Part shown: positions 3,432-4,616 of the stretch, one piece after another
Position numbering within the stretch: position 1 is the stretch's first letter
How the letters are laid out: the number at the start of each line of letters is the position of its first letter
Virus record (IMG/VR): IMGVR_UViG_2695420847_000014
DNA length: 9,360 bases
Direction: 5' to 3' (one strand)
Origin: a virus
Lineage: Duplodnaviria > Heunggongvirae > Uroviricota > Caudoviricetes
Position numbers and translations under genes: made by a program
The notes under the pieces: generated by a model
Databases searched by the model: none
What the model was told of the DNA's origin: nothing
What the model saw: only the letters and a program-made list of their open reading frames with translations

Positions 3432-3461
3432 TTGAGCGTCCAAAACAACGGTATATATAAT
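3432..3461 (+). promoter_or_regulatory. Putative sigma70 promoter of the lipoprotein accessory cassette
   Basis: TTGAGC (3432-3437), 18-nt spacer, TATAAT (3456-3461), about 30 nt upstream of the ATG at 3491 in an AT-rich context. Confidence 0.45.
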
Positions 3462-3490
3462 CCTTTACTATATGACATATGTGAGGAAAA

Positions 3491-3919
3491 ATGGGTTTTC
3501 GTAGCGCATCAATTCTTACGTTGATTATTAGTGGGATTATTATCGGGTGCACTGATGCTGTATCGACAAATTATCATGACCGTACATCATATTACTCCGA
3601 TAAAGCAATAGAGACACAGTATGTGAGTTCATCTGAACGTACTTCTGATGTTAGTGAGGATATCCGTCTGTATGCCCATCAAATCAAGAGCGCCATCGAA
3701 AAACAGTTCGGGGATGCGAGTAAGTATTCAGGAAAAGAGTGTACACTGAGAATGCATATGGCCCCGAATGGCCTTCTACTGGAGGTTAAAAGAGAAAGTG
3801 GAGACCTCGATTTATGTCGTGAAGCGATGAATGCGATAAAGAATGCTGATATACCTGCCCCCCCTTCGCCGGAAGTATATAAAGTATTTCAAAATGGGGT
3901 GCTGGATTTTAAACCCTGA
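3491..3919 (+). CDS. Outer-membrane lipoprotein with TolA domain III-like C-terminal domain
   Basis: Lipoprotein signal peptide MGFRSASILTLIISGIIIG|C (Cys20) with Thr at +2, so no Asp retention signal and outer-membrane sorting is predicted. A ~45 aa linker precedes a C-terminal ~85 aa (YAHQIKSAIEKQF...GKECTLRMHMAPNGLLLEVK...GDLDLCREA...IPAPPSPEVYKVFQNGVLDFKP) that matches my recollection of E. coli TolA domain III (YAGQIKSAIESKF...GKTCTLRIKLAPDGMLLDIK...CQAA...IPKPPSQAVYEVFKNAPLDFKP), including both Cys and the DFKP end. SD GAGGA is upstream. Confidence 0.8.
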   Translation: MGFRSASILTLIISGIIIGCTDAVSTNYHDRTSYYSDKAIETQYVSSSERTSDVSEDIRLYAHQIKSAIEKQFGDASKYSGKECTLRMHMAPNGLLLEVKRESGDLDLCREAMNAIKNADIPAPPSPEVYKVFQNGVLDFKP

Positions 3920-4069
3920 TATTTATTGTTTTGTAATAAACGGTTTCGGCTTAGGTTTGTTCTGACACAACTACGGCACTGAGCTAAATCTAGCGGATAG
4001 TCAGCTCTGAGCCAGTGGCGGACGTAACAACTACTATTGCTGAGATTTTAATGGATTGAGGAGCAAGAA

Positions 4070-4465
4070 GTGGGATTAAAGAAAATCGTTATGTTGACTT
4101 TTTGGGTCGGTTTTGTTGCGGGATGCACACCTTTACACCCTTCAGATTGCCACAAAACTACTGCTACAGGTAGTTGCAGTTCAGGACGCTGGGATGATCA
4201 GGATGAATGGGGGGCGCAAGCGCGGGGAATCAGAGCTGCAATTAATGCCAAACTTGATGAGCCGCATAACTGGAAAGGGAAAAAATGCAGGTTGCATATG
4301 GAATTCTCTCAGGATGGCACGGCGTTAAAAATATCTACCAGTAACGGTGATAAAGCCTATTGCGAAGCGATAAAGTCCGCAGCTCATAAAGCCAAATTTC
4401 CGGCCTTCAACAATCCGGAAGTCTACAGAGATTTTCAGAAATCTGGCTTTGACATGCGAGGTTAG
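4070..4465 (+). CDS. Outer-membrane lipoprotein, diverged paralog with TolA domain III-like fold
   Basis: GTG start with SD GAGGAG 7 nt upstream; signal peptide MGLKKIVMLTFWVGFVAG|C (lipobox VAGC, Thr at +2). The C-terminal domain (IRAAINAKL...GKKCRLHMEFSQDGTALKIS...GDKAYCEAIKSAA...FPAFNNPEVYRDFQKSGFD) keeps the same motif spacing and Cys pair as the upstream gene and TolA-III, at roughly 30% identity, plus an extra N-terminal Cys pair (C27, C36). Confidence 0.75.
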   Translation: MGLKKIVMLTFWVGFVAGCTPLHPSDCHKTTATGSCSSGRWDDQDEWGAQARGIRAAINAKLDEPHNWKGKKCRLHMEFSQDGTALKISTSNGDKAYCEAIKSAAHKAKFPAFNNPEVYRDFQKSGFDMRG

Positions 4466-4590
4466 CTCTTCAATTACTATATCTCATTCATAGCAAACTG
4501 ACAGATTTGATGATGTTCTATATACGAAACCTGTGATGTCAAGTCTGAGCTAATACAAATAAACATAATATCAGAGAAATACATTTTATT

Positions 4591-4616
4591 AGCTCGCTAC
4601 GGCGAGCTTTTTATAT
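4591..4616 (+). terminator. Intrinsic terminator closing the lipoprotein cassette
   Basis: Hairpin AGCTCGC-tacg-GCGAGCT (4591-4608) followed by TTTTTATATT. Confidence 0.6.

Follow-up and report, generated by a model that had tools for sequence, protein, structure and literature searches.

Mobile genes for predicted lipoproteins carrying a copy of TolA domain III in a lambdoid prophage: candidate outer-membrane decoys for Tol-dependent invaders

The DNA analyzed here (the window) is a stretch of 9,360 nucleotides from the IMG/VR virus record IMGVR_UViG_2695420847_000014 (Caudoviricetes), which was identified by open reading frame (ORF) calling and domain searches as the late region of a lambdoid Escherichia coli prophage. 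It contains two tandem genes, called gene 1 and gene 2 in what follows, whose products are copies of domain III of TolA (TolAIII) and not TolA proper, each preceded by a lipoprotein signal peptide and a linker. Both genes are under purifying selection, and relatives of each are found as single genes, on prophages in one case and on plasmids and bacterial chromosomes in the other. We propose, with a probability of roughly 0.45, that these products are TolAIII competitors tethered to the outer membrane, which would let the carrier tolerate Tol-dependent bacteriocins, filamentous phages or both, perhaps to the detriment of its envelope. The two ORFs had been pointed out in an earlier note on this DNA, made from the sequence alone, and their coordinates are confirmed, each being preceded by a Shine-Dalgarno sequence (GAGG at 3483-3486 for gene 1 and GAGGAG at 4058-4063 for gene 2). 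Their parts are as follows.

3491-3919, + strand: gene 1, predicted lipoprotein of 142 aa, ATG start; lipobox IIGC (Cys20), disordered linker 21-51, TolAIII domain 55-142 (bases 3653-3916)
4070-4465, + strand: gene 2, predicted lipoprotein of 131 aa, GTG start; lipobox VAGC (Cys19), Cys-containing linker 20-48 (bases 4127-4213), TolAIII domain 49-131 (bases 4214-4462)

Two predicted lipoproteins with a TolA domain III

Both products match the Pfam profile of the TolA C-terminal domain, PF06519 (cut-off 25 bits), gene 1 with 82.6 bits (E = 2.4e-23) and gene 2 with 54.6 bits (E = 1.3e-14), and a phmmer search of the PDB retrieves the E. coli TolAIII chains with E = 5e-28 and 5e-9, respectively. 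They align without gaps to residues 334-421 of E. coli TolA, with 52 of 88 positions identical in gene 1 (59%) and 27 of 88 in gene 2 (31%), and both end at the position of TolA residue 421, gene 1 in LDFKP and gene 2 in FDMRG. Cys363 and Cys388 of TolA are kept in the two proteins and are invariant across both families. Gene 1 and gene 2 are identical to each other at only 25 of the 88 positions (28%), so the pair is not a recent tandem duplication. The AlphaFold2 models of both proteins show the alpha/beta fold of TolAIII, with a three-stranded sheet that includes the terminal strand beta3 (domain pLDDT of about 85-95, N-terminal parts disordered). In Foldseek, the gene 1 model superposes on 2X9A_B with a TM score of 0.96 and a root-mean-square deviation of 0.6 Å, and the gene 2 model on 3QDP with 0.90 and 1.1 Å. 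The earlier note had recognized this domain, with the cysteine pair in both proteins and the terminal DFKP in the first, and PF06519 and the gapless alignment bear it out; the check that it proposed, a comparison of predicted structures with those of TolAIII, gives the same answer for both proteins, and the similarity on which its reading depended is detected by Pfam, phmmer and Foldseek alike.

The same searches separate these proteins from genuine TolA. On the NF007065 profile, which describes the latter, gene 1 scores 107.8 and gene 2 53.7 bits, both under the cut-off of 213; TIGR02794 (cut-off 59.45) gives 75.6 for gene 1, over the cut-off, and 47.2 for gene 2, under it, and the matches to it cover just the C-terminal ~98 of 362 positions in gene 1 and ~81 in gene 2. 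Both proteins lack the inner-membrane anchor and the helical domain II of TolA, and their genes have Q, tRNA and holin genes as neighbors, not tolQR, tolB or pal.

The N-termini, MGFRSASILTLIISGIIIGC in gene 1 and MGLKKIVMLTFWVGFVAGC in gene 2, are textbook lipoprotein signal peptides: both have a charged n-region, a hydrophobic h-region and a lipobox of the form [LVI][ASTVI][GAS]C (IIGC and VAGC, respectively), as had been predicted for both products. The lipobox cysteine is invariant in the 16 aligned members of both families, and TolA has no lipobox. Thr occupies position +2 (no Asp) in both mature proteins; by the +2 rule of E. coli, the Lol system is predicted to sort them to the outer membrane. 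The linker of gene 2, CTPLHPSDCHKTTATGSCSSGRWDDQDEWG, is nearly invariant across genera and follows the pattern C-x-PLHPS-x-CHKTTATGSCSSGRWDDQDEWG, with two extra conserved cysteines; despite this conservation, it is mostly disordered in the AlphaFold prediction. It might be a second TolB-binding epitope, turning the gene 2 product into a bivalent TolB trap. A segment of this linker, SCSSGRWDDQDEWG, loosely resembles the TolB boxes of colicins (DGSGWSSE), with a spacing that is off by one.

The beta3 strand of TolAIII (415-421) binds the TolB N-terminus, colicin N and the N1 domain of the phage protein g3p by beta-strand addition, and the substitutions D418P or K420P cause loss of TolB, colicin N and g3p binding together with a full tol phenotype (PMC4339652; review PMC7391070). 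Colicin A binds the opposite edge of the domain (375-380), making cation-pi contacts to Lys368 and Lys396 (PMC3365938). The beta3 residues L417-D418-F419-K420-P421 are unchanged in gene 1, in agreement with the terminal DFKP that had been pointed out in it, and read F-D-M-R-G in gene 2. The strand that contacts colicin A, LLDIKP in TolA, is largely kept in gene 1 (LLEVKR) and has diverged in gene 2 (ALKIST). Judged by these residues, the gene 1 product is a close mimic of both faces of TolAIII, and that of gene 2 keeps mainly the beta3 edge.

Distribution, selection and genomic context

Of 5426 complete E. coli genomes, 774 carry the 1.4-kb region that holds both genes at ≥80% coverage, and phage mEp460_ev081 has it with 99.8% identity. 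In all 80 IMG/VR contigs that carry gene 2, gene 1 precedes it by 154 nt (one of them with an insertion and two with a shortened gene 1 match). The block shared among contigs runs from ~3300 to the end of the holin gene; homology breaks at ~3300 in 44 contigs, at least one of which (L066) has a different, unrelated Q (180 aa) and no tRNAs upstream. Relatives of gene 1, 91% and 66% identical, stand alone between Q and a P21-type holin in other prophages, and one such lone relative has a NanS-p-like esterase gene on its 3' side, in the same slot that holds stx in Stx phages. In the prophages with the 66%-identical allele (L124-L127 4636-6539; L126 7786-9732), a TfpB-family protein and an AraC-family regulator are encoded upstream and a DUF1737-SASA (NanS-p-like) esterase downstream. 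This layout is typical of Stx phages, with other genes in place of those for the toxin.

Relatives about 88% identical to gene 2 are carried by at least 600 plasmids (604 sequenced plasmids at ≥80% protein coverage; plasmid homologues at L094 3613-4044, L003 5995-6426 and L004 5995-6426). On IncI1-type plasmids the relative lies between the nikB relaxase gene and trbC, among the transfer genes (nikB, trbC, trbB); it is close to hok and toxB on plasmids of the pO157-like type. It is also found as a lone gene in variable chromosomal neighborhoods of 31 species belonging to Enterobacter, Leclercia, Klebsiella, Raoultella, Citrobacter, Pantoea, Rouxiella, Serratia and other genera. The earlier note had described a self-contained two-gene cassette of a prophage; what is found instead is a juxtaposition of two autonomous modules of one gene each, which move separately and share 28% identity, and a class that is not specific to phages, extends to plasmids and chromosomal islets and is much larger than had been assumed.

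More distant members enlarge the class again. About 300 plasmids, mostly from Klebsiella, contain a distant TolA-like match (<60% identity), and a third family was read from one of these elements, the IncFIB/IncFII conjugative plasmid p1B12097 of Klebsiella pneumoniae: a TolAIII lipoprotein of 144 aa with the lipobox ITAC and the ending LDFRL, annotated as 'TolA' (L134 5812-6246). Its gene is placed directly 3' of a gene for a periplasmic thioredoxin-fold protein, and its linker contains VDDLLGNLGS, like a motif at the junction of TolA domains II and III. A search of 1.84 billion cluster representatives gave 130 matches, mostly proteins of 110-165 aa; a lipobox is present in about 46-50 of the 66 representatives in this size range, and many end in LDFK/LDFR-type motifs. 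There are dozens of further TolAIII-only lipoprotein clusters.

The chromosomal neighborhoods of gene 2 were surveyed in 29 of the 31 species loci, those in which the homologue had been called. None of the 105 flanking proteins is encoded by a colicin gene; the neighbors are mostly LysR and GNAT housekeeping-type accessory genes with few defense ATPases, so there is no guilt by association. At one locus (L009-L012 8957-10736, protein labelled Serratia marcescens) the lone homologue lies beside a defense-like pair of GmrSD-type DUF262 and HEPN genes, and neighbors of this kind are the exception across the 29 loci.

Selection has acted on both modules. The dN/dS of the gene 1 domain is 0.09-0.34 among three diverged alleles; in gene 2, some 300 pairwise comparisons of 29 copies across species, with dS of about 0.8-0.9, give a median of 0.125 in the domain and of 0.10 in the linker of 29 residues. 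In-frame stop codons occur in two of the 31 species-level copies of gene 2, those of Enterobacter quasiroggenkampii (L116) and Leclercia adecarboxylata NCTC13032 (L120), which suggests occasional gene loss. In public annotation, both proteins are full-length members of PHROG 5772, listed with 'unknown function' (E = 1.6e-62 and 6.7e-65), and PGAP names the homologues of gene 2 'cell envelope integrity TolA C-terminal domain-containing protein', placing the start of gene 2 at the internal ATG 4091 and not at GTG 4070; the plasmid homologues have an ATG at the position of this GTG. Gene 1 is annotated by RefSeq/PGAP as a pseudogene ('tolA, incomplete, missing N-terminus') that covers the domain only (L002 6360-6620, equal to 3659-3919 of the window), so the intact lipoprotein ORF is missing from many proteomes. 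No functional description of TolAIII-only lipoproteins was found in the full-text literature, a search that left out most subscription journals, so that this absence is not proof; within that scope, the statement that no phage system of this type had been characterized holds. The novelty claimed for the family is thereby narrowed, since the domain label is already public and only the function is new ground.

Within the window, gene 1 and gene 2 occupy the cargo (moron) slot between the Q and tRNA genes (tRNAs within 2238-2493) and the holin gene, where the earlier note had placed them. The remaining features are listed below.

11-889: DUF968 gene
899-1276: RusA
1273-2094: Q antiterminator (Pfam Antiterm, E = 8e-55)
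2175-2194: tR'-like hairpin
2238-2313: tRNA with anticodon CAU
2417-2493: tRNA Arg-UCU
2604-2957: orf117, 117 aa
2993-3124: DUF3927 mini-ORF, 43 aa
3190-3380, + strand: STnc100-like small RNA element, just 5' of gene 1 (Rfam RF02076, 110 bits; gathering cut-off 47)
3432-3461, + strand: candidate sigma-70-like promoter for gene 1 (TTGAGC-18-TATAAT, consensus match)
4591-4616, + strand: intrinsic-terminator-like hairpin (AGCTCGC-TACG-GCGAGCT and T-run) between gene 2 and the holin gene
4687-4932: P21-type holin
4932-5429: lysozyme (SAR-type)
downstream of the lysozyme gene: Rz/Rz1, then the small and large terminase subunits

The CAU tRNA is called Met by ARAGORN, and its counterpart in a related prophage is named tRNA-Ile, of the lysidine-modified type, in RefSeq; the latter reading matches the ileZ-argN-argO tRNAs of Stx phages. 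Searches of Pfam and PADLOC with orf117 gave no match.

The candidate promoter agrees with the consensus at 10 of 12 positions and is retained in an 88%-identical relative (L129), whose -10 hexamer differs by one base; the strong hairpin beyond gene 2 consists of a GC-rich stem of 7 bp and a T-run. No promoter-like site was found for gene 2 alone and there is no terminator between the two genes, so their co-transcription is likely. Thus, of the promoter and terminator that had been attributed to the cassette, a promoter-like site and a hairpin are present, as consensus matches only, and gene 2 has none of its own. Because the genes lie downstream of Q and of the tR'-like terminator, they should also be transcribed strongly after induction by polymerase that Q has modified. 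Near the promoter, no convincing LexA, Fur or CRP box was found. A remark on 'TolA' concerning EDL933_2012 (PMC11125564) was considered as evidence of expression and rejected, as it concerns a tail-fiber gene.

The mosaic breakpoint at ~3300 falls inside the STnc100-like element. Further copies of this element are present at L129 6704-6877, 7599-7803 and 7854-8061 and at L066 7125-7311, and a lone gene 1 relative is flanked by three of them (L129, L131). These repeats of ~200 nt may serve in recombination and so shuffle cargo, or may act on gene 1 as its leader or regulator; the element is adjacent to the system and possibly a linked module boundary. A repeat search around the gene 1/gene 2 region gave only short chance matches.

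The decoy reading and its alternatives

In the reading that we favor, each product would be anchored in the inner leaflet of the outer membrane and would carry, on a flexible linker, a free copy of TolAIII. With no membrane anchor of the TolA kind and no periplasm-spanning helix, such a protein would be unable to couple to TolQR or the proton-motive force or to transmit force, and could therefore only compete for the ligands of TolAIII, namely the TolA-binding translocation domains of colicins, the TolB N-terminus exploited by TolB-dependent colicins, and g3p N1. Its predicted position, at the inner face of the outer membrane, is where colicin translocation domains and g3p emerge and where TolB-Pal resides. 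The outcome would be an import block in the carrier cell, acquired by lysogenic conversion or with a plasmid.

This decoy is preferred because the binding edge is conserved, single genes are autonomous, they are carried by prophages and conjugative plasmids, and the reported affinities favor colicin N. The TolAIII identity by sequence and fold, the colicin A strand largely kept in gene 1, the invariant lipobox cysteine and the purifying selection on both genes count for it as well. Since the relatives of gene 2 stand alone in unrelated neighborhoods in 31 species, their partner must be a conserved component of the host or of an invader. The carriers comprise prophages, whose cargo slot follows either of two unrelated Q genes, plasmids of the IncI1 and pO157-like types, and conjugative IncF plasmids of Klebsiella, and carriage by elements that benefit from the protection of their host may be counted in favor of a decoy. 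Filamentous phages that depend on TolA use conjugative pili as their primary receptors. The complex between TolAIII and the g3p of IF1, an I-pilus phage, has been solved (PDB 2X9A). The affinity for TolAIII is ~1 µM in the case of colicin N and ~40 µM in that of TolB, a ~40-fold difference (PMC4339652), so a modest amount of decoy could trap invaders and spare Tol-Pal.

Several points weigh against a decoy. Lys368, a cation-pi partner of colicin A, is lost in both proteins (His in gene 1, Glu in gene 2), and Lys396, kept in gene 1, is His in gene 2, the protein in which the colicin A strand has diverged. Among 50,697 sequenced phage genomes searched with both proteins by tblastn, that of mEp460_ev081 is the only one with these genes. 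Since they are part of a Q-dependent late transcript, their strongest expression may be lytic rather than lysogenic, and the candidate promoter is only a consensus match. Expression and protection in the carrier state would be suggested by this site and by the autonomy of the lone chromosomal homologues. No linkage to colicin operons and only a few defense ATPases were seen in the neighborhoods surveyed, and PADLOC returned no match. Lastly, capture of TolB could harm the host.

Capture of TolB is also the first step of the main rival explanation, to which we give a rather low probability, in which these proteins would modulate Tol-Pal: by holding the TolB N-terminus, the tethered TolAIII would block the TolA-driven release of Pal and loosen the link between the outer membrane and peptidoglycan, so that lysogens would vesiculate or leak more, or disruption of the outer membrane and release of particles would be helped when the late operon fires. 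Such a role would suit genes located directly 5' of the pinholin, SAR-type lysozyme and Rz/Rz1 genes, inside a Q-antiterminated transcript, whose best-conserved surface is the TolB-binding edge beta3. Single mutations in beta3 of TolA are enough for the full tol phenotype (PMC4339652), and a review of Tol-Pal considered that modulating TolB interactions could regulate vesicle production (PMC7391070). The leakage reported for cells with periplasmic TolAIII (the 1993 experiment described below) points the same way. However, the homologues on plasmids and those alone on chromosomes are far from lysis genes, which argues for a role in living cells; spanins already handle the outer membrane; and a chronic tol phenotype is costly, yet the region is found in the 774 E. 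coli genomes mentioned above. Ligand capture is common to this explanation and to the decoy model, and the two are not exclusive.

It seems unlikely, too, that the TolAIII fold has been retargeted to a different partner, its mimicry of TolA being incidental; exclusion of superinfecting tailed phages or of incoming conjugative DNA, or a host envelope protein, would then be the candidates. The low identity of gene 2 to TolAIII (31%) and its diverged colicin A-site residues could be understood in this way, its linker is as constrained as the domain (omega 0.10), suggesting an extra interaction, and the IncI1 relative lies among transfer genes. But gene 1 keeps beta3 of TolA residue for residue and is 59% identical overall, most short lipoprotein clusters have LDFK/LDFR-type ends, as in TolA, and the gene neighborhoods suggest no alternative partner. 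That the genes are non-functional debris, i.e., captured tolA fragments with no selected role, as the PGAP pseudogene call implies, has a very small probability. Apart from the RefSeq label of gene 1 as a partial tolA pseudogene, it could appeal to the stop codons in 2 of 31 gene 2 copies; it is strongly disfavored by the selection and lipobox data, since both ORFs are complete, follow a Shine-Dalgarno sequence and encode a signal peptide whose lipobox is invariant and has no counterpart in TolA, the dN/dS is 0.09-0.34 for gene 1 and ~0.1 for gene 2 at dS up to ~0.9, and the arrangement of the two genes is the same in 80 of 80 viral contigs.

Known systems and significance

The domains described here share with E. 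coli TolAIII (1S62, 3QDP, 1TOL, 2X9A, 3QDR) the fold, the disulphide cysteines and the C-terminal end point; the proteins differ from TolA in their lipoprotein signal peptide and linker of ~30 residues, in their mobile carriage and in the absence of a tol-pal operon. In 1993, Levengood-Freyermuth, Click and Webster reportedly made wild-type E. coli tolerant to colicins E1, E2, E3 and A by means of a periplasmic TolAIII, and these cells are said to have been leaky as well. The free domain acted there as a dominant competitor, which makes it the laboratory precedent for the mechanism proposed here. That construct was an artificial, over-produced, soluble fragment of a host protein, whereas the proteins considered here are natural, diverged, predicted to be lipid-anchored and presumably under their own control.

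Other mobile elements interfere with the envelope in different ways. Cor (phi80/N15/mEp167), Llp (T5) and Bor (lambda) are small phage outer-membrane lipoproteins that alter the envelope of the carrier or exclude phages or colicins; the target of Cor and Llp is the surface receptor FhuA, which they bind and mask. Like these, gene 1 and gene 2 are encoded in a cargo position by a temperate phage or a plasmid; unlike Cor and Llp, their products would mimic a hub of import in the periplasm and so trap the invader. In sequence they are unrelated to Cor, Llp and Bor: the two proteins gave only TolA and TonB_2 in Pfam, and searches of Pfam, NCBIfam, PHROGs and PADLOC for homology to known exclusion lipoproteins (Cor, Llp, Bor and TraT type) returned only TolA/TonB-type or unknown-function matches. 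In cells infected by Ff phages, the N1 domain of periplasmic g3p occupies TolA and confers resistance. The interface between TolAIII and its ligands is the same in both cases, as is the predicted loss of Tol-dependent uptake of colicins and filamentous phages, but there the mobile element supplies a ligand to block the hub and here, in mirror image, it would block the ligand with an extra hub. Cor and Llp, the g3p blockade and periplasmic TolAIII are the nearest systems in function, and none of them is a hub copy that is at once natural, mobile and lipid-anchored.

Group A colicins and filamentous phages depend on TolAIII, and a cognate immunity protein covers one toxin only. We suggest, more tentatively than for the decoy itself, that TolAIII-only lipoproteins of prophages, plasmids and chromosomal islets form a large mobile class of immunity by mimicry of the hub, which would make carriers broadly tolerant of every Tol-dependent bacteriocin, whatever the toxin, and of pilus-dependent filamentous phages, these being intercepted at the inner face of the outer membrane. 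Its mechanism would differ from that of cognate immunity proteins and from receptor masking. If this is true, a generic import block that is mobile would be a new layer in bacterial competition, and it would bear on a known cost of conjugative pili, the exposure to male-specific phages. As the elements concerned are common and include pO157-like plasmids and IncI1 resistance plasmids, it could affect colicin and phage therapeutics, the hosts used in phage display, and the biology of outer-membrane vesicles, and TolAIII-only lipoproteins would serve as natural tools for probing force transduction between TolA and TolB.

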